Assembly (NCBI GenBank): GCA_046757165.1
Contig: JBHHXT010000067.1
Coordinates: 1 to 21,947 of the forward strand
DNA: 21,947 nt
Source: a bacterium
Lineage (GTDB): Bacteria > Zhuqueibacterota > Zhuqueibacteria > Oceanimicrobiales > Oceanimicrobiaceae
Direction: 5' to 3'
Shown here piece after piece: positions 1,164 through 14,902 of the stretch. The translations under genes and the position numbers were made by a program. A model generated the notes under the pieces. That model was not told the origin of the DNA. It was given only the letters and a program-made list of their open reading frames with translations, and did not search any database. How positions within the stretch are numbered: position 1 is the stretch's first letter; every line of letters begins with the position of its first letter.

Positions 1164-2546
1164 TCACCTGACCTCTTTGTCCGCCTTCAAGAGCTGCATG
1201 AATTCGTTGATGGTTTGAAATTCCTCCATCTGCCACACCGCCCGCTTGATCTCCTTTTGCTTCGCCTCGGAAAGCACTGGCGTGCACAGACTGCGAAACT
1301 TGTTGTCCAGGTCTTGCTCACTCATCGGCTCGCGCGGATCGCCTTTCGGATAATCGAGCTGCGCTGAGTGCTCCTGCCCGTTCTTGAGACGAATCGTCAC
1401 CTTCGACGGCTGCTTCGCCGGAAACATCTTTTCGAACGCCTCACTCGCCTCCCCTTTTATCCTGGGCAAAACAGTCTTTATCTGTGCATCTTGAATACGG
1501 TCCTCTTCAAACTGGTCGGTGGTAATCTGCCGGTAAACGATGGCAGCGGCAATGCAGTAAGGCAGGCTGTGGTCTGCCGTTTCGCGCGAGGTCGGGCGGT
1601 ATTTTTCCGTGTCGAACAGAATATCGACCGCCCGGGCGATGGTCGTGACCGTGACTTCCTCGATCTCCTGCGGCTGAATGTCGTTCTCGATGACCACCTT
1701 TAGCGTCGCTGAGATGTGGGTATGGGTCAAAGCTTCGGTCGGAAACGCTTTCATGGAGCAGTCGAGGATCTTGAAGCGCTCCCCCAGGTTTGCCACCAGT
1801 TTGGAGGGGTCCCAGTCCGGGCCGAGCGTCTGCATCAAACCTTCTTTACCCTCGAAGATCTGCTCGGTGCCGGTGTACCCCTGCTGTGCCATCAAGGCCG
1901 CCATGACACCGCTTTGCGCCGCCAGCGGATCGACGGTATTCTTCATCATGGTCAACTTGCCTGCGGTGACAGCTCCCAGGGTCAGATTGTGAGCGCCGGA
2001 GATGCCGATGGCATGCACCATCTGGTCCTCGTTGAGTCCCAACAGGTAACCGGCGACGATGGGCGAAACAAACTGCGTCAGCGTGGCATGATGCCACTTG
2101 CGTTCCCGGATCCCGGGGACAGCGAACTCGCACAGCCGCATTTCAAATTCATAGGCCAGGACGATGGCCCCGATCACCTCCTGCACTGATTTGCCCTCCC
2201 GTTCGCCCACCGCCAGCGCAACGGGAATGATGTCGCTGGGATGGCTCGGATCTTCCTTCCAGTAGATGTCGTTGAAATCCAGGGCACGAACCATCAGGCT
2301 GTTCAAAAAGGTGGCGTTGAAGGCGGGTATTTTTTCACCGCTGCCAATCACCGTCGCCTCCGGCTTCCCACCCATGTCGGCGTAGATGTTCCTGATGATT
2401 TTGACATCATGCGTCGTGGTGCCCCCATAAGCACAAGCGATGGAATCGTAGAGAAAGCGTTTCACTTCCGTTACGACTTCATCCGGTAAATCTTCGTATT
2501 TCAGACCTAAAGAGAATTCTGCAATTTGTCTCGAGATGGACTTCAT
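1164..2546 (-). CDS. prpD: MmgE/PrpD family dehydratase (2-methylcitrate dehydratase-like)
   Basis: 460 aa; RALDFNDIY, HPSD, WHHAT, ETADHSLPY, YPKGDPREPM motifs typical of MmgE/PrpD. Exact substrate not established. Confidence 0.88.
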   Translation of the reverse strand: MKSISRQIAEFSLGLKYEDLPDEVVTEVKRFLYDSIACAYGGTTTHDVKIIRNIYADMGGKPEATVIGSGEKIPAFNATFLNSLMVRALDFNDIYWKEDPSHPSDIIPVALAVGEREGKSVQEVIGAIVLAYEFEMRLCEFAVPGIRERKWHHATLTQFVSPIVAGYLLGLNEDQMVHAIGISGAHNLTLGAVTAGKLTMMKNTVDPLAAQSGVMAALMAQQGYTGTEQIFEGKEGLMQTLGPDWDPSKLVANLGERFKILDCSMKAFPTEALTHTHISATLKVVIENDIQPQEIEEVTVTTIARAVDILFDTEKYRPTSRETADHSLPYCIAAAIVYRQITTDQFEEDRIQDAQIKTVLPRIKGEASEAFEKMFPAKQPSKVTIRLKNGQEHSAQLDYPKGDPREPMSEQDLDNKFRSLCTPVLSEAKQKEIKRAVWQMEEFQTINEFMQLLKADKEVR

Positions 2547-2872: not shown

Positions 2873-3991
2873 CTAAAGCTTGCGTGCCACTTCCTCCGCC
2901 ACTTCGAGCGTTGTGGAGGTTCCGCCCATGTCGTAGGTCTTGACTTTCCCTTCTCTGATAACCGTCGCAATGGCGCTTTCTAACTTTTCGGACAGCTCGA
3001 GCTCCCCCAGCCATTGCAGCATCAGCTTTGCGGTCAGGAGCATGGCCATGGGGTTGACCTTATGCTGACCGGCATATTTCGGGGCAGAGCCATGTGTCGG
3101 CTCGAAAACCCCGTAGGCGTCGCCGAGGTTGCCGCTGGAGGCAAACCCGAGCCCACCGACGAGTTGTGCACACAGATCAGATATGATGTCACCGAACATG
3201 TTGGTTGCCACCAGGACGCCGTAGTCCTGCGGATTCTTGATGAGCCACATGCACATGGCATCGATATTGGTCTCCCACAGCTCGATGCCGGGATAGTTCT
3301 GCGCAACTTTGCGTGCTTCCCGCAAGACCAGCCCGCCGGTTTCGCGCAAAACATTGGGCTTTTCAACAATGGTCACACTCTTGTAGCCATGCTTTTTGGC
3401 ATACTCAAACGCCCGGGTGACAATGTTGCGGGAGGCCCTTTTTGTATTGACTCGCAAGGAGACCGCGATTTCATCCAGCGGCGTTTGGCCGAAGCGTTTC
3501 ATCTTAGGCGAATGACGCGAAATGACCTCCATCACCTCGCCCGGCAATGGATGAAACTCGATGCCGACGTACAAATCTTCCGTGTTCTCGCGAAAGACCA
3601 CCAGGTCGATGTCATCACGATAGTTCAATGGATTGCCCGGATAGGCTTTGCACGGGCGCAGATTCGTATGCAGGTTGAACTCCTGACGCAAGCGGACGAT
3701 GGGGCTGGAATAGACCAACCCTCTGTCCTGTAATTCGTGCACCAGTTCTTTCTGTGCCTCTTCTTTCGGTTTTGAGGTGATGGCGCCGAACAGGCAGGCG
3801 TCGGTGTTTTTGAGCAGCTCGATTGTTCTGGCAGGCAAAGGGTCGCCTTCCGCCCTCCAGAACTCCCAGCCGATATCACCGTGCTGGTAGTCCCCATTGA
3901 ACTCGAGCGCATCCAAAACGATTCTGGCAGCCTCCATTACGTCATGTCCGACGCCGTCTCCTGGTAACCATGCTATTTTGTACTTTGCCAT
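2873..3991 (-). CDS. Isocitrate/homoisocitrate/isopropylmalate family beta-decarboxylating dehydrogenase, probably NADP-preferring
   Basis: LPGDGVG, YSSPIVRLRQEFNLHTNLRP, RENTEDLY, NMFGDIISD, FEPTHGSAPKYAG, KTYDMGG. Start placed at ATG 3991 (MAKYKIAW) with AGGAG upstream, rather than GTG 4009. Confidence 0.9.
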   Translation of the reverse strand: MAKYKIAWLPGDGVGHDVMEAARIVLDALEFNGDYQHGDIGWEFWRAEGDPLPARTIELLKNTDACLFGAITSKPKEEAQKELVHELQDRGLVYSSPIVRLRQEFNLHTNLRPCKAYPGNPLNYRDDIDLVVFRENTEDLYVGIEFHPLPGEVMEVISRHSPKMKRFGQTPLDEIAVSLRVNTKRASRNIVTRAFEYAKKHGYKSVTIVEKPNVLRETGGLVLREARKVAQNYPGIELWETNIDAMCMWLIKNPQDYGVLVATNMFGDIISDLCAQLVGGLGFASSGNLGDAYGVFEPTHGSAPKYAGQHKVNPMAMLLTAKLMLQWLGELELSEKLESAIATVIREGKVKTYDMGGTSTTLEVAEEVARKL

Positions 3992-4010
3992 CTTCTCCTG
4001 TCCGGGCACT

Positions 4011-4289
4011 TTACTTGCCGGGTTTCTGTTTCAGTTTACCTGCCGCGGGGTCGACAATGTTCATTGTTTTCTGCTTTTCCAGGGCATGCTCGAGAATCAA
4101 GTCATCCATATGCTTGTTTGCTTCTTCCATGGTTTTGAATTTGAAAACCCCCCGCGGATAACTGACAGGATTGAGGTTCTGAGCGAACTCCCAGAGCATC
4201 CCAAGTTGATCATAATACTGCTGGTCAGGGTTGAGGCACCACAAGGCTTCTTCGGCCTCACGTAGCGATCTGTATTTGTACACGGGCAT
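4011..4289 (-). CDS. Small hypothetical protein, putative partner/antitoxin of the adjacent nucleotidyltransferase
   Basis: 92 aa; start overlaps the upstream stop (TAATG at 4289); GGAGG upstream; internal repeat PVYKYRSLREAEE / RGVFKFKTMEEANK. Confidence 0.7.
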   Translation of the reverse strand: MPVYKYRSLREAEEALWCLNPDQQYYDQLGMLWEFAQNLNPVSYPRGVFKFKTMEEANKHMDDLILEHALEKQKTMNIVDPAAGKLKQKPGK

Positions 4290-4762
4290 TACTTTGACTT
4301 CCTCCTTTTCTCCAACAGCCTTTGCAGGCTGTACGCATCCGCCTTATCGTGCAGGCGTACCGTATCTCTCTTCATGCTTATGAGAGTTTCGGGTCTGGCA
4401 ATTCTAATTTTTATGCCATTATCTTCAAGCTCCTCCCATTCCAAATTCTCGTAGGTGAAGACCTCTCCGAGTCGAAATAATATGTCAATGTAAAACCCTG
4501 CCGGTGTCCCGTAGCGAATAACAGGATAATCTGCATCTTCCTCGAGCGTGATCTCATCGATGCTTTCATCGTCGAATACCGTGTGAAGGGCTTGCCTTAG
4601 CCGGGCAAGGTTCTCGGAATCCTGCTTCACAAAGATATCCAAATCCTTTGTAAACCTGTTGATGCCATGGTAGTTGATGGCGACCCCGCCTACGAGTATA
4701 TACTCAACATCGAATTTATGCAACGCCCTGAGAATTTCTTTGTAATAGTCAAAATTCGTCAT
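4289..4762 (-). CDS. Nucleotidyltransferase of the Pol-beta superfamily (AbiEii/DUF6036-like)
   Basis: YILVGGVAINYHGINRFTKDLDIFV (GG..A....G..R.T.D.D signature), a later YIDI strand and a C-terminal K...R..D..D helix. Confidence 0.8.
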   Translation of the reverse strand: MTNFDYYKEILRALHKFDVEYILVGGVAINYHGINRFTKDLDIFVKQDSENLARLRQALHTVFDDESIDEITLEEDADYPVIRYGTPAGFYIDILFRLGEVFTYENLEWEELEDNGIKIRIARPETLISMKRDTVRLHDKADAYSLQRLLEKRRKSK

Positions 4763-4782: not shown

Positions 4783-5319
4783 CTACCGCACCAAATCAAA
4801 ATCAATAAAATCCGCGTGATGCAAGATAATCGCCTCGGCCGAGCGGGGAAAATGGTCTCCTTCCTTCGAGTGCACGGCCACGATGTGCATGACTTCCTCC
4901 GGGATGTCATACTTGAAGCACAGCCCCACGCCACTAAACGGGTGGCGCAGATATTTGCCGTGCTTGCTTTTGACCACGTTGCCGTTTTCCTTGTCGTACT
5001 CGTAGAGCTTGCCCACGTCCGCGAGCAGGGCGCCGGCGATCAGGTGGTCGCGGTTGACGGGGGTCTTTCTGTCGCCGTATGCCTCTGTCAGGACGTTATC
5101 GCACGCGACACACATTTTGCAGACCGTCCGGACGTGCTCCAGATACGTTATTTTGACATTATCCGCCAAAAGCGTAAAGGGAATCTTCAACAACTCTTCC
5201 GCACTCCAGTTTCGGTAGTTCGTGGCTTCGACCCAGACGGCAATCGTGTTCTCGCGCAGTTTTTCGTCTTCGATGAGATTGAATTCAGGGATGATTTCCA
5301 ACAAAGTGGTTCTGTCCAT
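4783..5319 (-). CDS. HD/HDIG-fold metal-dependent phosphohydrolase-like protein with AD in place of HD
   Basis: 178 aa; LEHVRTV, LIAGALLADVGK, LRHPFSG, HIVAVHS, HHAD; GGAG upstream. Confidence 0.82.
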   Translation of the reverse strand: MDRTTLLEIIPEFNLIEDEKLRENTIAVWVEATNYRNWSAEELLKIPFTLLADNVKITYLEHVRTVCKMCVACDNVLTEAYGDRKTPVNRDHLIAGALLADVGKLYEYDKENGNVVKSKHGKYLRHPFSGVGLCFKYDIPEEVMHIVAVHSKEGDHFPRSAEAIILHHADFIDFDLVR

Positions 5320-5339: not shown

Positions 5340-6116
5340 TCAGATGGTCCTGTCATCCGGACCGTCGTATTCGTGGTCTTGCGGGTGAATCGGCCGCATC
5401 GGCTTTTGCCGGGTGCGCTCTTCGTGGGCATGGGCGACCAGCCCCGGCACCCTCGCTATCATGAAAAAGGCATTCGCCAGCTCGGGTGAGAAATCCAGTT
5501 CGCACAAGACAGCCGCGATCGCCCCATCAACGTTGATGGGGAGTTTTTTGCCACTCTGACTTACAAGCTCACCCTCGATTGTTTGTGCTATTTTGATGAA
5601 TGTCTCTCCGATGTTCAATTCGTGTGCCAATTCAAACAGCCTGTGACTTCTTGGATCCTGCGTATGCAGACGATGGCCAAATCCGGAGATGCGCCGGCCG
5701 ATTTGCCGGTACTCTTTAACGATCTCTTGCGCCGCCACACCAATTGAGATCTGCCTGGCCTTGACCTTATCCTGCGTTTGCAGCAGAACGCCCATGCAAT
5801 CCTCGATGGCGCCTCCGTGAAATCTCGAGATGGCAAGAATGCCGCTTGCCACGGCCGCGTTTAACGGCGCACCTGTCGAGGCCACGGTAACGGCCGTCAG
5901 CGCCGAAGGGGGTGTGGCCCCATGGTCGATTGAAGAGACCAGAACCGCATCGATCATCTTGCCAACGTTGTCTGTCGGCAGCTCTCCTTTCAACGCCAGA
6001 TAGACACCTTGCCCAAATGAAATGCGCCCCATGAGCTCATCCACACGATAGCCACGCAGACGAACCTCATTTGCTCTAATCTTCGTTATCGCAGTTTTCC
6101 AGTGTAACTGACTCAT
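5340..6116 (-). CDS. Citryl-CoA lyase-like protein (short citrate synthase family)
   Basis: 258 aa; WKTAIT N-terminus, SIDHGATPPS, FHGGAIE, GFGHRLHTQDPR, INVDGAIAA, ARVPGLVAH. Length fits Ccl or the ACL C-terminal domain, not a full ~370-430 aa citrate synthase. Confidence 0.85.
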   Translation of the reverse strand: MSQLHWKTAITKIRANEVRLRGYRVDELMGRISFGQGVYLALKGELPTDNVGKMIDAVLVSSIDHGATPPSALTAVTVASTGAPLNAAVASGILAISRFHGGAIEDCMGVLLQTQDKVKARQISIGVAAQEIVKEYRQIGRRISGFGHRLHTQDPRSHRLFELAHELNIGETFIKIAQTIEGELVSQSGKKLPINVDGAIAAVLCELDFSPELANAFFMIARVPGLVAHAHEERTRQKPMRPIHPQDHEYDGPDDRTI

Positions 6117-6274: not shown

Positions 6275-7177
6275 TCATTGGCTTACCGCCGCCAGAACCC
6301 CGGCAGTCACCTGCGGGATGTCATCAAAGTTGTCGACCATGTGCGCTCCGACTTCTTGCAGACGTCCCACCTTGCTCGCGTGAGTCCCACGGTTGCCTTC
6401 CACAATCGCGCCGGCGTGCGAAAAACGCGTGCCCGATTGCGCCGCTTTGCCACCGATAAATGCAATCAGCGGCTTGGTAAACTGCCCGGTGGCGATCAGA
6501 TCCGCAACCTGCTCCTCTTGTGTGGTGCCGATCTCACCGAACATGACGACGGCTTCCGTGTCCTCGTCACGCTGGAAGAGCTTGACGGCTTCAGGATGGG
6601 GCAGGCCAACGATGGCATCCCCGCCGACATGCACGATGGTACTCAAACCAATGCCATTCTTGCTCAGGTAGTAAGCGATAGATGACGTAATGCCGCCGCT
6701 TCGCGAGGTGACGCCAACGTGCCCCTTCCGGAACCACTGCCGGGCGGTCTGCGCTCGCCCCCCGATCATGCCCAGAACAGCCTTGCCGACACTCAGCAAG
6801 CCAAGCGTGTTAGGACCGACAAACCGTGCCCCGTTCAATTCGGCTGCATGCGCGATTTCCAGAACATCATAGATGGGCACGCGGTCCGGCACGAGCACCA
6901 GCAGCTTTATACCGGCGTCGATGGCCTCCAGCGCAGCGTTTTTCACCAGTGGAGCGGGGACAAAAATCACCGAGGTGTCGACCGCTGTGTTCTCGGTCGC
7001 TTCCTGTACAGTATCGAAAACAGGCACGTCCAGCACCGTTTGGTTGCCTTTGCCCGGCGTCACGCCGGCCACGACATTCGTGCCGTACTCCATCATCAGC
7101 TTGGCGCGTGCCTGCCCTTCACGACCTGTGATGCCCTGCACCAGCACTTTGTTGTTTTCATCAACGAGAATCGACAT
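6275..7177 (-). CDS. Succinyl-CoA synthetase alpha-like CoA ligase subunit (SucD / citryl-CoA synthetase small subunit-like)
   Basis: VLVQGITGREG, VAGVTPGKG, GPNTLG, SRSGG, GEIG, RFSHAGAI (phospho-His); coupled to the upstream gene by a TGATG overlap. Confidence 0.9.
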   Translation of the reverse strand: MSILVDENNKVLVQGITGREGQARAKLMMEYGTNVVAGVTPGKGNQTVLDVPVFDTVQEATENTAVDTSVIFVPAPLVKNAALEAIDAGIKLLVLVPDRVPIYDVLEIAHAAELNGARFVGPNTLGLLSVGKAVLGMIGGRAQTARQWFRKGHVGVTSRSGGITSSIAYYLSKNGIGLSTIVHVGGDAIVGLPHPEAVKLFQRDEDTEAVVMFGEIGTTQEEQVADLIATGQFTKPLIAFIGGKAAQSGTRFSHAGAIVEGNRGTHASKVGRLQEVGAHMVDNFDDIPQVTAGVLAAVSQ

Positions 7178-8721
7178 CAGGCCACCTGCGCGCGGTATTC
7201 ATTCAAACCAGGAATCGGCAAATCGATATAGGCCCCGCGTTTGCCGTGATAGAGACACTCCATCTCGCACGCGAGACACTCGATGCACTTGCCTGCCTTT
7301 GCTTCCTCAGCCGGAATCGCGAGAAGCGGCACCCCGTCTTCGACTTTCAGAATTTCGGGGATGCAACTTTCGACGCACACCTTGTGGTCACATTCCTTGC
7401 AGGTGCCATGGTCGAAGGTGATGGTGCCGGTCAGGGTCGCAAAGGAATACGGCTGTTCGCAGGTCGGTCTCACAAAGGCTTCATCCGGGTCAGGCGCGAG
7501 TTTGTGCTGATCCACAAGATGCCGCAGTCTTTCGGCGCAGAAATCGGCCGAATCGTCCTTTTTGTAGCCTTCCACCGGCGCGGGCAGATGTTTTGTGCAG
7601 GTCGTCAGAATGTCGATCGCCCGGTCCTCAGAATTGCCCCCGAGTCGAATCACGGCAGGAATCGAAAGATTTTCCTCCACAAACGCCTTTGCCAACCCAC
7701 GAGCGGAATGGAATTGCTCCTGACTCGCAACGCCGGAGCCGGAGCCGAAGTAGCCATCGATGTTCTTTTGGGAAAGAATGATTTTGGCGGCGCGATAGAC
7801 TTTCGAAGCCGCCGGATTGCCGCTGGTGTCGGTAAAATTGGCCAGTTTGAACCCCTTTGCGTGCACGGCGTCCATCGACATCATGGAGCCGCCGCCGCCA
7901 GCGCCGTGGAACCCGATATAGCCTCCGCCCTTCTGAAATTCTTCTTCCATTTGAATAAAATAGAACGTGCCGCGATAGTCGTCCTTTTCGACATCGTAGG
8001 CGATCTTGTCCAGTACCGAGGGCGGCCGGTTGAGCTCACGAGCGATCTCGATGTCGAGCTCCGGGTGACGAAACACGGCGTAATCGTCCACGGCGATGCG
8101 GCAATCTGCGGCCATGACCTCGTTGTCTTCGGTCAGCACGAGCGGGTTGATTTCCGCGGAGCGCGCTTCGACCTTGCGGGCTGCTTGCCACAACTTGACC
8201 AGAACGCCGGCCAACTGCATCTGCCGCTTGCCGTGAATGCCGGTTTGTCGAACCAGATTGCGCGCCTGGTAGTCCCGCAAGCCAGTGGCAATGTCGATCT
8301 CCATCCTGGCCACTTTGTCGGGATGTTCAGCCGCGATCTCCTCGATGCCGCTGCCGCCCATCGAGCTGAAGATCATGACTGGACGGCGGGCGGAGTCATC
8401 GATCACAATGCCGGCGTAGAACTCCTGCCTGATTCTGATTTGTTCTTCAACCAGGACCTTGTCGATGACGAAATCCTCGACTCGCCGTCCAAAAAGCTTT
8501 TCTGACTTTGATTTTGCCTCTGCTGCTGAAGCCGCGAACTGAATGCCACCGAATGCGGCGCGTTTGGTGGACCACACCTGTGCTTTGACGACCACCGGCG
8601 TGTTGAGGGCCTCTGCCACCTTGAAAACCTCGTCAGGGCTCTTCGCGAGCTGGCCTTTGGGGGTCGGTATTCTGAAGTCCAGAAGAATTTGCTTCCCCTG
8701 GTGTTCGTGAAGTCGTGCCAT
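7177..8721 (-). CDS. ATP-grasp CoA ligase beta subunit (SucC / citryl-CoA synthetase large subunit-like) with C-terminal ferredoxin-like domain
   Basis: LHEHQGK, VVVKAQV, VLVEE, EINPL, GAGGGGSM, NFTDTSGNP, VIRLGGN; extra C-terminus with CKECDHKVCVESC and CIECLACEMEC. Confidence 0.88.
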   Translation of the reverse strand: MARLHEHQGKQILLDFRIPTPKGQLAKSPDEVFKVAEALNTPVVVKAQVWSTKRAAFGGIQFAASAAEAKSKSEKLFGRRVEDFVIDKVLVEEQIRIRQEFYAGIVIDDSARRPVMIFSSMGGSGIEEIAAEHPDKVARMEIDIATGLRDYQARNLVRQTGIHGKRQMQLAGVLVKLWQAARKVEARSAEINPLVLTEDNEVMAADCRIAVDDYAVFRHPELDIEIARELNRPPSVLDKIAYDVEKDDYRGTFYFIQMEEEFQKGGGYIGFHGAGGGGSMMSMDAVHAKGFKLANFTDTSGNPAASKVYRAAKIILSQKNIDGYFGSGSGVASQEQFHSARGLAKAFVEENLSIPAVIRLGGNSEDRAIDILTTCTKHLPAPVEGYKKDDSADFCAERLRHLVDQHKLAPDPDEAFVRPTCEQPYSFATLTGTITFDHGTCKECDHKVCVESCIPEILKVEDGVPLLAIPAEEAKAGKCIECLACEMECLYHGKRGAYIDLPIPGLNEYRAQVA

Positions 8722-11896: not shown

Positions 11897-13171
11897 TCAA
11901 TTCAAAACATCGCGGGGGTCCGTGATCACACCACGCACAGCTGTCGCGGCTGCCACAGCCGGACTGACCAGATAAACCTGTGCCGAAGTGTGACCGTTTC
12001 TGCCGACAAAGTTGCGATTCGTGGTGAACACCCCGACCTCGTTTTCTGCCATCACGCCCATATGGGCGCCAAAGCACGCCCCGCAGGTCGGCGGGCCGAT
12101 GGAGGCGCCTGCCTGGTGGAAGATCTCAGCCAGACCCTCGGTCAGCATCTGGTGGTAGATCTGCTCAGTGGCGGGCACCACCACCATGCGCGTCTTATCG
12201 TGCACTTTCTTGCCTTTCAGCACACGCGCCGCGATCCTGAGATCTTCGATCTTGCCATTCGTACACGAGCCGATGTAAACCTGATCGACCGCAACCGGTT
12301 CTGCCTGCGAGACCGGAACAACGTTGCCGGGCAGGTTGGGGCAGGCAACCATGGGCTGCAGCTCGCTCACATCATAGTTGAGCTCCTGGCAATAAACAGC
12401 ATCGTCATCCGGCTGGAAAAACATCCATTCTTCCTCCTGCTTCGTTGCCCGGCCTTGCAGGTACGCCCGGGTGGTTTTGTCGGCGATAACCACGCCGTTC
12501 TTGCCGCCGCACTCAATCGTCATGTTGGCAAAAACAAACCGGTCATACATGGGCATGTCCTCGATGGTCGCGCCACCGAATTCCAGGGCTTTGTAGGTCC
12601 CCCCTTCTATGCCTAAATCGCGACAAACCAGCAGCATCATGTCCTTGGCCGACACCCATTCCGGCAGCACGCCGGTAAACCGAATCTTGATGGATTCCGG
12701 TACGCGCAGCCAGGTTTCGCCCAGGACCCAGGCGGCGGCCATGTCTGTACTGCCCACGCCGGTCGCAAAACAGCCCAGCCCGCCGTACGTGGTGCTGTGG
12801 GAATCGGCGCCAAGCACGACGTCGCCAGGATGAATCAGCCCCTGCTCCGGCAGCAACTGGTGCGAGATGCCTGATCGACCCACTTCGTAGTAATATTTGA
12901 TGCCTTGTTCACGGGCAAAATTGCGCATCATCTTGGAAAACTCGGCAGACTTGATGTCCTTGGCCGGGACCAGGTGGTCGTGAACGAGCGGCACCTTTTC
13001 GGGATGGAAAACCTTTTCGCCTCCCATTTCCTGGAAGACCTTTATCGTCAGAGGCGAGGAAATATCCGTCGCCATCGCTATATCTATTTTGACAATAACA
13101 AGATCGCCTGGCCCGACTTGCTTCAAACCAGCACGATTTGCCAGAATCTTTTCGGTCAAGGTCATGCCCAT
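11897..13171 (-). CDS. 3-isopropylmalate dehydratase / homoaconitase large subunit (LeuC/HacA short type)
   Basis: 424 aa; MGMTLTEKIL, DHLVPA, GADSHSTTYG, IGSCTNG, TCGACFG (three Fe-S Cys), TTNRNFVGRNG, YLVSPAVAAA. Confidence 0.92.
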   Translation of the reverse strand: MGMTLTEKILANRAGLKQVGPGDLVIVKIDIAMATDISSPLTIKVFQEMGGEKVFHPEKVPLVHDHLVPAKDIKSAEFSKMMRNFAREQGIKYYYEVGRSGISHQLLPEQGLIHPGDVVLGADSHSTTYGGLGCFATGVGSTDMAAAWVLGETWLRVPESIKIRFTGVLPEWVSAKDMMLLVCRDLGIEGGTYKALEFGGATIEDMPMYDRFVFANMTIECGGKNGVVIADKTTRAYLQGRATKQEEEWMFFQPDDDAVYCQELNYDVSELQPMVACPNLPGNVVPVSQAEPVAVDQVYIGSCTNGKIEDLRIAARVLKGKKVHDKTRMVVVPATEQIYHQMLTEGLAEIFHQAGASIGPPTCGACFGAHMGVMAENEVGVFTTNRNFVGRNGHTSAQVYLVSPAVAAATAVRGVITDPRDVLN

Positions 13172-13483: not shown

Positions 13484-14902
13484 GTGAAAAACAGATTCAA
13501 CAGACTTACCTCAAAAGAATGGCTGCCGTTTCAGAAATCGTGGTTTCGATTTAGTGGGCTGGAGAAGCTGTACGAACAGAATCTTCGCTTTTTCACCCTG
13601 CCGCAGGAGAGTCCGGCATCGGTCTTCTTCCATGGCCGGCAAGAAGACAGGCAGATCCTGGAGCAAGTGGCAAGAAGAAACGGTTGTGACATCACCACGG
13701 ACGTCAATCCGCCCATCAACTTCGCCCTGATCGACCTGCTTGAGATTGTGGGTCAGGAAACCTCTGAGACCGACTATGAAAAAACCAAAACCGAAGTGCT
13801 CGGGCTCGTTTCGAAGCTGTACCACTGTCTCGACCATCGCCGGTTTCTGGCTGTGTTTGTCCGCAACGTCGCGGTTGGGAACCGGTTCTATCCTTACGCC
13901 TGGGACCTGGCCAAATCCATGGCTGAAATCCTTTCGCTCAAAGACGAAAAGATCGGCTGCCTGGACAGGGGGACGCGGGCGCAGGAGCAGAATTATTTCA
14001 CGACCCGGCAGAATGTCATCTATTGCCTCTATTTCCGCAAGGACGAACAGGCGGCCGGACCGCAGGGCAGCCACAAAACCGGCCTGTTTCACAGGACTAC
14101 GCAGGAGCACACCTCGCTCACATTCAGTCCGCTGGAGAGCTGGTATGTTCTGAAGCCACAGCCGCGCAAGAAAAACGAGATCCTGCATCCGGCGAAATAC
14201 CCGGAAGACCTGGTCGACCTTTTCGTGCAGGCCTTCACCCGGGAGCAGGACACGGTTTTTGATCCCATGTGTGGAACCGGAAGCACCCAGCTCGGCGCTT
14301 TGCGAAACCGGCGTCACGGCTATGGTGTGGAGCTGAGCGAGTTTTTCACCCAGATTGCGGTCGAGCGCTGCGACGAGTTCCTGGCACCCAGACAAGAGGC
14401 TCTGTTCGCGACCGATCGAAAACTCAGGTGCAAGATTCTGAACAAAGATGCTCGCGACATCAACGCGACTGACTTCCCGGCGATTGACTACATGCTCACC
14501 TCCCCGCCCTATTGGGATATGCTCAATATGAAAGGCGCCGAAAACCAGGCCAACCGAAAACAGAAGGGCCTGCAGCTCAACTACTCAGATGACGAACAGG
14601 ATTTGGGGAATATTGGAGATTATCAGGGGTTTCTTACAGAGTTGTGCACAATCTACTTCAAAATTATCGACCAGCTGAAACCAGGGGGGTATCTTACGAT
14701 CGTCGTTAAGAATATCAAGAAGAAAGGCAAAAACTACCCCTTTGCGTGGGATTTGGCGGAGAGACTGCAGGAAAAACTCACCCTCTTGCCCGAGGTTTTC
14801 TGGTGTCAGGATGACATTTCCATTGCCCCCTACGGCTACGGCAACACCTGGGTCAGCAATACCTTCCACCACTATTGCTTGAATTTCCGGAAGCCCGGTT
14901 AA
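13484..14902 (+). CDS. SAM-dependent amino-methyltransferase (N4/N6 DNA methylase family), orphan, with a degenerate duplicated N-terminal half
   Basis: HPAKYP, VFDPMCGTGST (motif I), GVELS, DYMLTSPPYW (motif IV), LKPGGYL; GTG start; no restriction enzyme adjacent. Confidence 0.85.
   Translation: MKNRFNRLTSKEWLPFQKSWFRFSGLEKLYEQNLRFFTLPQESPASVFFHGRQEDRQILEQVARRNGCDITTDVNPPINFALIDLLEIVGQETSETDYEKTKTEVLGLVSKLYHCLDHRRFLAVFVRNVAVGNRFYPYAWDLAKSMAEILSLKDEKIGCLDRGTRAQEQNYFTTRQNVIYCLYFRKDEQAAGPQGSHKTGLFHRTTQEHTSLTFSPLESWYVLKPQPRKKNEILHPAKYPEDLVDLFVQAFTREQDTVFDPMCGTGSTQLGALRNRRHGYGVELSEFFTQIAVERCDEFLAPRQEALFATDRKLRCKILNKDARDINATDFPAIDYMLTSPPYWDMLNMKGAENQANRKQKGLQLNYSDDEQDLGNIGDYQGFLTELCTIYFKIIDQLKPGGYLTIVVKNIKKKGKNYPFAWDLAERLQEKLTLLPEVFWCQDDISIAPYGYGNTWVSNTFHHYCLNFRKPG

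Follow-up and report, generated by a model that had tools for sequence, protein, structure and literature searches.

A CoA ligase with a ferredoxin-type tail in the Zhuqueibacterota and a candidate reversed aminoadipate route for lysine

A stretch of 21,947 nucleotides from a bacterium of the phylum Zhuqueibacterota (contig JBHHXT010000067.1 of assembly GCA_046757165.1; the whole stretch is called the window below) carries on its minus strand an operon in which the beta subunit of an acyl-CoA synthetase is extended by a ferredoxin-type domain. Counted from beta, the genes that follow encode the alpha subunit, a citryl-CoA-lyase-like protein, an HD protein, a homoisocitrate-dehydrogenase-like (HICDH-like) enzyme and a PrpD protein:

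7177..8721, minus strand: beta (large) subunit of an acyl-CoA synthetase of the SucC/citryl-CoA synthetase superfamily, 514 amino acids (aa); Pfam ATP-grasp_2, E 1.6e-52
7180..7461, minus strand: ferredoxin-type domain, beta residues 421-514, predicted 2[4Fe-4S] from cysteine invariance, profile matches, ligand loss and a docking model
7813..7908, minus strand: loops HGAGGGGS (residues 272-279) and DTSGNP (298-303), like those of citryl-CoA synthetase (CCS), from an alignment to 6hxq_B
7714..7743, minus strand: family-specific substrate loop SGSGVASQEQ (residues 327-336), invariant in 120/120 sequences; alignments to 6hxq_B and SucC chains
6275..7177, minus strand: alpha (small) subunit, SucD-like, 300 aa; Pfam CoA_binding and Ligase_CoA, below SucD cut-offs
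5340..6116, minus strand: citryl-CoA-lyase-like protein with a short citrate-synthase fold, 258 aa, proposed homocitryl-CoA lyase; NF004869, 6hxp
4783..5319, minus strand: HD-domain protein, 178 aa; Pfam HD, E 2.8e-7
2873..4009, minus strand: HICDH-like enzyme, likely start ATG 3991, loop YSSPIVRLR; AksF2, loop of 3ty3
1164..2546, minus strand: PrpD/MmgE-family dehydratase, 460 aa, proposed homoaconitate/homocitrate hydratase; Pfam MmgE_PrpD_N and _C

The open reading frame (ORF) of beta, running from 8721 to 7177, comprises an ATP-grasp domain (residues 1-212, approximately), a CoA-ligase/substrate domain (about 262-408), a linker and the tail, and its stop codon is shared with the ATG of alpha in a TGATG overlap. 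A preliminary description of the window had reported a 514-aa protein with two cysteine motifs and a GAGGGGSM loop, all of which are present: the first motif is CKECDHKVCVESC (C441, C444, C449, C453), the second CIECLACEMEC (C479, C482, C485, C489). Is the fusion real? In an alignment of the query with the 119 best-listed of 6177 protein-search matches (61-80% identity), the eight tail cysteines are invariant (120/120). A genome scan confirmed 155 loci, 80 of which were kept, from KSB1, Calditrichota, Zixibacteria, Anaerolineae and others; ligase loop and eight-cysteine tail lie in a single frame in 78 of the 80, the other two having been missed by the loop pattern. The fusion is present in 65 of 80 metagenome loci; of the rest, 12 are ended by a contig edge, two (L313, L355) are apparently broken or frameshifted and one (L286) is split, with the ferredoxin-type domain encoded as a separate 98-aa gene between beta and alpha; Desulfofundulus-type records (Desulfofundulus thermobenzoicus WP_152947596.1) likewise have it as a stand-alone gene. 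Because the fusion recurs in many independent assemblies, an artefact is very unlikely, and with the invariance of the cysteines this recurrence led to the rejection of both an assembly artefact and chance cysteines: the fusion of ligase and tail is real and under selection. Public records label these homologues succinyl-CoA synthetase beta.

The tail has escaped annotation, likely because the Pfam Fer4 families match it only below their cut-offs (best 19.3 bits against 27; Fer4_9 at E 0.0011, and at E<=1 in 65 of 67 alignment members); a Fer4 domain search, which the preliminary description had proposed, thus returns matches, none of them above threshold. A profile search found HycB4 (E 0.0095) and OorD (8ys5_D, E 0.0096), and the Atlas gave TM scores of 0.62-0.63 between the tail and predicted Fer4 dicluster models; the single-sequence model of the tail has a pLDDT of 49, and Foldseek and VIA searches with the whole of beta returned the ligase core only. 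In a 2[4Fe-4S] ferredoxin, three cysteines of one motif and the last of the other form the ligand set of one cluster. The predicted ligands are accordingly C441/C444/C449 with C489 for cluster I and C479/C482/C485 with C453 for cluster II, and both CxxCx2-4CxxxC motifs are kept in 120/120 beta sequences and in 118/120 short homologues. Distant representatives (P0247, P0256, P0275, P0389) retain C453/C479/C482/C485 and have lost C489 together with most or all of C441/C444/C449; this coordinated loss of one ligand set points to cross-wise ligation and argues against zinc fingers or disulfides. The eight-cysteine pattern and the cross-wise ligand sets are thus shared with 2[4Fe-4S] ferredoxin domains such as the OorD delta subunit and HycB4, from which the tail differs in its sub-cut-off Pfam scores, its own conserved hairpin (YxFxTxTG) and LPIPGL end, and its predicted seat on a non-redox ligase domain. 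Cysteine spacing, ligand loss and the Fer4 and OorD similarities bear out the earlier prediction of a two-cluster ferredoxin-type domain, and in all likelihood the tail carries two [4Fe-4S] clusters. In other lineages, including Planctomycetota, the domain is retained with two, three or no cysteines. Four representatives from Planctomycetota and elsewhere (P0253, P0274, P0279, P0394) keep the tail despite the loss of six to eight cysteines; in two of them the ATP-grasp region is shortened and divergent, and these may be inactive paralogues.

What would such a domain do on a CoA ligase? In a complex model built from alpha, beta residues 1-408 and the tail, the tail docks on the substrate-binding domain of beta (0.83 against 0.00 for the best control), with contact agreement between runs of at least 93% and partner pLDDT of at least 88. 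The docking mark is reached by 116 of 157 solved pairs and by 2 of 215 mismatched ones, figures that carry over to this case only approximately, and it speaks against leaning on the result that the run paired two parts of one natural chain. The modelled interface joins beta residues 305-314 and 341-345, the helices after two substrate loops, to tail residues 481-487 and 499-506, and many of these residues are invariant; on the tail side it is made of the cluster II motif and the C-terminus, with the cluster I motif outside. Because the model seats the tail on the substrate-binding domain, the tail is likely a structural or allosteric clamp and not an electron relay; it may also sense O2 or redox state, a role named in the preliminary description as well. 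The other possibility, raised in the preliminary description as a tie between ligase activity and electron flow, is that the tail is an OorD-like electron carrier or docking module through which the ligase would be coupled to a redox partner such as a 2-oxoacid:ferredoxin oxidoreductase. That OorD and HycB4 are the closest solved sequences (E about 0.01), that the cluster I motif would remain free and that the main family keeps all eight cysteines strictly would suit this idea, yet an oxidoreductase operon of the window genome already has a ferredoxin subunit gene next to it, no oxidoreductase genes recur next to beta when ORFs are clustered across 80 loci, the domain outlasts most of its cysteines in several lineages, and equivalent modules in the same operon slot do without it. 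With the tail predicted to pack on its own ligase, a role in electron transfer appears decidedly unlikely.

The ligase core is not an ordinary SucC. Beta scores below the SucC cut-offs (TIGR01016, 251 against 375.55 bits; NF001913, 255 against 370 bits), and the window genome, which is 99.98% complete, has a separate canonical sucCD whose SucC, on contig C15, passes its cut-off at 582 bits; the SucC loops NGAG and FGGI(V/T)R are absent, GAGGGGS and SGSGVASQEQ standing in their stead. Since beta falls short of cut-offs that the separate sucCD passes, and has other substrate loops, a SucC identity was rejected, and the substrate is very probably something other than succinate, as had been suggested earlier. 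The fold is nevertheless that of the superfamily: the AlphaFold2 model of beta (pLDDT 91.7) compares by VIA with succinyl-CoA synthetase 1jkj at Z 30.7 (root-mean-square deviation, rmsd, 3.1; 379 residues aligned) and with the CCS of Hydrogenobacter thermophilus, 6hxq, at Z 27.9 (rmsd 4.5; 390 aligned). SucCD (3ufx, 1jkj) has the same ATP-grasp and CoA-ligase folds and the conserved His of alpha, here His254 in FSHAGAI, invariant in 41 sequences and the expected phosphohistidine; apart from scores and loops it differs in lacking the 120 extra residues of beta.

The placement of beta relative to SucC and CCS is based on motifs, hidden Markov model (HMM) scores and fold scores. The preliminary description had found the glycine loop to be unlike that of SucC, which stands, and to resemble that of ATP-citrate lyase (ACL), which can be refined: Hydrogenobacter CCS, with its GGGGS and DxxGNP loops, fits better, and the lyase is a separate 258-aa gene, unfused to alpha, so that the ACL architecture is not matched. 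With the CCS and citryl-CoA lyase (CCL) of H. thermophilus (6hxq, 6hxp) the operon shares, besides these loops, the trio of beta, alpha and a short citrate-synthase-fold lyase. The differences lie in the third loop, where SGSGVASQEQ takes the place of GGTANNT in CCS and of FGGIVRCD-type loops in SucC, in the replacement of the CCS motifs ANNT/ANFT and RR, which we take to be citrate contacts, by ASQE and RL (invariant in 120/120), in an identity of about 28-29%, in the C-terminal ferredoxin domain, and in neighbours that are homoaconitase, HICDH, PrpD and lysine genes and not those of the reductive tricarboxylic acid (TCA) cycle. The enzyme belongs to the CCS/CCL kind as a variant.

The rest of the operon hints at what the substrate may be. 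The citryl-CoA-lyase-like protein exceeds the NF004869 cut-off (269 against 212 bits) and has 6hxp as best match in the Protein Data Bank (E 3.5e-62). The dehydrogenase reaches the cut-off of no model for isocitrate dehydrogenase (IDH), isopropylmalate dehydrogenase or HICDH, its best NCBIfam match being AksF2 (338 bits against 540); its loop YSSPIVRLR lacks the S-x-N motif of IDH and best matches YSSPIVALR of the Schizosaccharomyces pombe HICDH 3ty3, and SPIV recurs in 35 of 36 captured HICDH-like loops, one loop being truncated. The PrpD protein lies far below the 2-methylcitrate dehydratase cut-offs, and the HD motif reads AD in the window protein, the family varying between HD, AD, CD and RD. 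Around beta in 80 loci, many of them short, an adjacent alpha is found in 73, the lyase in 64, HD in 37, a LeuC-type gene in 33, the dehydrogenase in 26 and PrpD in 10; several operon neighbours in related loci are fungal-type homoaconitases above cut-off, and the window genome has one on contig C202 (TIGR00139, 861.8 against 529.9 bits). The same genome encodes a citrate synthase II above cut-off, an AcnA-like protein, an S-x-N-type IDH-family protein beside citrate synthase, LysA above cut-off and, outside the operon, a lysine 6-transaminase. Because SucC, citrate synthase, AcnA-like and IDH-family genes are all present separately, the operon is not the housekeeping cycle.

Related operons tie the dehydrogenase to lysine. 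In G032 a gene for 1-piperideine-6-carboxylate (P6C) dehydrogenase (NF050084, above cut-off) precedes by 3 bp beta with its tail, alpha, lyase, HD, homoaconitase and HICDH; in L311 an aldehyde dehydrogenase (ALDH), 51% identical to a P6C dehydrogenase-type enzyme, and an aminotransferase lie between HICDH-PrpD and beta. The same dehydrogenase is also accompanied by other modules. G062 and G100 (the latter assigned by similarity only) combine TrmB, P6C dehydrogenase, an aminotransferase, a distant HICDH-like protein (50-53%), HD, two hydratases, CitDE and CitF; G047, G087 and G075 (the HMM scans cover G075 and part of G047) have TrmB, P6C dehydrogenase, aminotransferase and HICDH with a 3-hydroxy-3-methylglutaryl-CoA (HMG-CoA)-lyase-like protein, CaiB, LeuC and LeuD. 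Operons with the same TrmB-to-HICDH series carry CitDE and CitF (L268, L269) or CaiB and the HMG-CoA-lyase-like gene (L103, L104, L106). Finally, G003, G009 and G050 combine hydratases with a SucC-like beta that lacks the ferredoxin (Fd) tail and an alpha-lyase fusion, and G003 and G050 have HD as well; HD is thus found in CitDEF and Fd-less operons too. Fully read operons have two hydratases in varying combinations, one being a homoaconitase or a LeuCD-type pair and the other PrpD or a further LeuCD-type enzyme, and many shorter loci have one or none. Altogether, one dehydrogenase keeps company with four unrelated modules that make or cleave an acyl-CoA (the Fe-S-clamped CCS/CCL type, the Fd-less ACL type, the CitDEF type and the CaiB plus HMG-CoA-lyase type), three of them together with a catabolic lysine gene, and the cleavage of homocitrate into an acetyl unit and 2-oxoglutarate would be the simplest chemistry common to all.

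Three further sets of loci touch on these modules. A CitD-CitE fusion with CitF-like genes occurs in L239-L242, L258-L261 and L267-L269, the tested pair scoring below the citrate lyase equivalog cut-offs. The Fd-less SucC-like beta with an alpha/citryl-CoA-lyase fusion (about 714 aa; L145, L229, L230), which has an ACL-like architecture but SucC-like loops, is present in 12 of 121 genomes of the phylum. A separate ACL-like pair of 420 and 907 aa with ANNT and RGGP motifs lies at L262:7836-11822, in a genome (G082) in which no match was found for the citrate-synthase family.

Co-occurrence tells a similar story. The 121 genomes surveyed in the phylum of the window, whose kin are not independent, comprise 22 with beta, 98 with an HICDH-like gene, 17 with a fungal-type homoaconitase, 46 with PrpD, 50 with CitF, 34 with a lyase-like gene (22 stand-alone, 12 fused to alpha) and 37 with a lysine 6-transaminase above cut-off. 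HICDH, PrpD and the lyase each occur in 21 of the 22 beta carriers; homoaconitase occurs in 15, against 2 of the 99 other genomes, one of which has its operon ended by a contig edge; and the transaminase in 19, against 18 of 99. CitF is absent from all 22, being mutually exclusive with the Fd-beta operon, and HICDH is present in 80 of the 84 genomes bearing a CCS/CCL-type or CitF module. An S-x-N IDH accompanies the operon dehydrogenase in 5 of 5 tested genomes. Across phyla, in 50 beta-carrying genomes drawn from the 80 loci, HICDH is found in 45 and a homocitrate synthase above cut-off in none.

How might these parts work together? Lysine 6-transaminase would convert lysine into aminoadipate semialdehyde/P6C, which would yield 2-aminoadipate and then 2-oxoadipate; the HICDH-like enzyme, in a reductive carboxylation, would turn 2-oxoadipate and CO2 into homoisocitrate; homoaconitase would give cis-homoaconitate, and PrpD or the second LeuCD-type hydratase homocitrate. 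Beta/alpha would then make homocitryl-CoA from homocitrate, ATP and CoA, and the adjacent citrate-synthase-fold lyase would release acetyl-CoA and 2-oxoglutarate, the latter of which could serve again as amino acceptor. Judging from gene content and motifs, homocitrate is a reasonably probable substrate; its cleavage within lysine breakdown is about as likely as not, and the full proposal, that beta/alpha is the homocitryl-CoA synthetase of a reversed aminoadipate route from lysine to acetyl-CoA and 2-oxoglutarate, has about an even chance of being right. The genes, their motifs, order and co-occurrence are observed and the domain interface is a model prediction; clusters, substrate, direction and stereochemistry are inferred from them. 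According to PMC3556520, fungal homoaconitases interconvert homoaconitate and homoisocitrate only and need a second enzyme, so a second hydratase in the operon fits. The requirement is shared with the alpha-aminoadipate pathway of lysine synthesis, as are a homoaconitase above the TIGR00139 cut-off and the YSSPIV loop of HICDH 3ty3; what differs is that no homocitrate synthase scores above cut-off in the 50 carriers and that CoA-activation/lyase modules and catabolic lysine genes are linked instead, a linkage that suggests a reversed use of the aminoadipate enzymes. Two hydratases accompany the citrate-synthase-fold and CitE lyases and one the HMG-CoA-lyase version, as would be expected if the former needed (S)-homocitrate. 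On the widest scale, lysine breakdown by the backward aminoadipate route may be widespread in uncultured bacteria, with homocitrate cleaved by any of the four modules and the Fe-S domain gating the ligase by O2 or redox state; this we put forward tentatively. A full-text literature search, to which most subscription papers were closed, returned no account of a ligase-ferredoxin fusion, of homocitryl-CoA or of homocitrate cleavage, and the pathway, if confirmed, would be new.

Several observations do not sit easily with this proposal. The lyase and true citryl-CoA lyase are closely homologous, and no residue change was found in the former that would explain the release of 2-oxoglutarate. The HICDH-like gene is far commoner than beta (98/121 against 22/121). 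A P6C dehydrogenase-like ALDH lies near beta in just 2 of 80 metagenome loci and not in the window, and the ALDH beside the lysine transaminase of the window genome scores 395 against the P6C dehydrogenase cut-off of 730. That genome's IDH-family gene is under every NCBIfam IDH cut-off (249 against 509). LysA is above cut-off in only 23 of the 50 carriers, and 15 of the 50 have LysX-like genes, which, with a homocitrate synthase above cut-off in none, fits a biosynthetic role there. The window genome also encodes glutaryl-CoA dehydrogenase and several 2-oxoacid:ferredoxin oxidoreductases, so the usual route through 2-oxoadipate is open to it, or the operon could work in the forward direction. 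In a subgroup with the same beta loop (L289, L290, L297, L317, L325), beta is preceded by class I fumarase-like alpha/beta genes and genes for a fumarate-reductase-like flavoprotein and Fe-S protein, and the substrates of this subgroup could be C4 or C5 dicarboxylates. L107 has a related dehydrogenase (65% identity) coming after sdh genes, and both settings are TCA-like.

If the lyase is so close to citryl-CoA lyase, could the substrate simply be citrate? A divergent CCS that splits or forms ordinary citrate in concert with the lyase, a bifunctional IDH and two half-aconitases, in a reductive branch from 2-oxoglutarate to acetyl-CoA or in an ATP-yielding citrate synthesis, would explain the GGGGS and DxxGNP loops, the score of the lyase and its kinship to 6hxp, the fumarase- and fumarate-reductase-like neighbours of the same beta loop and the CitDEF-like genes in the same slot; Thermus-type HICDHs, moreover, oxidise isocitrate too. 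We nevertheless regard citrate as somewhat improbable: the ANNT and RR motifs of CCS are replaced, the HICDH loop is fungal-type, with Val at the position of an Arg in Thermus HICDH, the CitE/CitF-like proteins tested fall under the equivalog cut-offs, the operons hold fungal-type homoaconitase and P6C dehydrogenase, and the window genome has citrate synthase, aconitase and IDH-family genes of its own. Alternatively, homocitrate may be the product and not the substrate, with lyase and synthetase acting as an ATP-yielding homocitrate synthase whose 2-oxoadipate would supply lysine synthesis of the LysW type or be oxidised by way of glutaryl-CoA, in a homocitrate cycle that oxidises 2-oxoglutarate. 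The lack of a homocitrate synthase in the 50 carriers would then be filled, the LysX-like operons of the 15, which are devoid of homocitrate synthase, homoaconitase and HICDH, would gain a source of precursor (LysX-carrying Anaerolineae could use the module in this way), glutaryl-CoA dehydrogenase and the oxidoreductases would find a place, and HICDH would act as in known pathways, as an oxidative decarboxylase. Weighed against this are the operons in which the module stands with P6C dehydrogenase, an enzyme of lysine catabolism, and in which glutaryl-CoA genes were not seen, the interchangeable CitDEF- and HMG-CoA-lyase-type modules, which run as lyases, the LysA of the window genome, and the many carriers without LysA and LysX above cut-off; on balance, synthesis in this direction is unlikely.

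A methylcitrate cycle (PrpC/PrpD/aconitase/PrpB) was also considered and is disfavoured on chemistry and HMM scores; the genome was not searched for PrpB. The operon has a beta-decarboxylating dehydrogenase in the position of PrpB, and 2-methylisocitrate, with its tertiary hydroxyl, is no substrate for such an enzyme; the PrpD protein, too, is far below the equivalog cut-offs. Common to both systems are a PrpD-family dehydratase, a citrate-synthase-fold enzyme, an aconitase-family hydratase and, as described in PMC3556520, a syn-elimination logic. A LeuA-like gene on contig C102 was rejected as partner synthase: it is absent from the beta-carrying families f14, f16 and f21 and clusters with LeuC/LeuD/LeuB-like, crotonase and acyl-CoA dehydrogenase genes.

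Within the window, the gene at 11897-13171 is LeuC-like and probably part of that C102 LeuA-like system. It is one of a second set of LeuC/LeuD/LeuB-like genes (also in G000 C188, C102 and C228, and in L176, L178, L180 and L183) that includes an unusual LeuA-like synthase scoring under every cut-off and clusters with thiolase, 3-hydroxybutyryl-CoA dehydrogenase, crotonase, acyl-CoA dehydrogenase or 2-oxoacid oxidoreductase genes, a 2-oxoacid elongation system distinct from leucine synthesis. Between HD and the dehydrogenase, at 4011-4762 on the minus strand, lie a nucleotidyltransferase gene (Pfam AbiEii, E 3.2e-11) and a 92-aa ORF, with a lower GC of 0.48; of 80 related loci, one has the ORF and none the nucleotidyltransferase, and the two are likely a small inserted toxin-antitoxin-like pair. 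A 472-aa DNA methyltransferase-like ORF (N6_N4_Mtase) at 13484-14902 on the plus strand is common to 1 of 80 loci. In families without the beta operon (L224, L227, L228), the HD gene directly precedes a tryptophanase/tyrosine-phenol-lyase-like gene, recognised by eye, and lies about 7 kb upstream of an HICDH-like gene.

Genome surveys use CCS/CCL genes as markers of the reductive TCA cycle (PMC9802188). Because public records call these proteins succinyl-CoA synthetase beta and the CCS/CCL kind serves as such a marker, this family can introduce errors of two sorts into the metabolic reconstruction of KSB1, Calditrichota, Zixibacteria and Anaerolineae. If the reversed aminoadipate proposal is true, it would add a lysine catabolic route that fixes CO2 rather than releasing two, and would give functions to orphan families: the PRK06224 'citryl-CoA lyases', a PrpD subfamily, bacterial fungal-type homoaconitases and divergent CitEF. 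An iron-sulfur domain would, moreover, sit on a CoA ligase whose own chemistry is non-redox.

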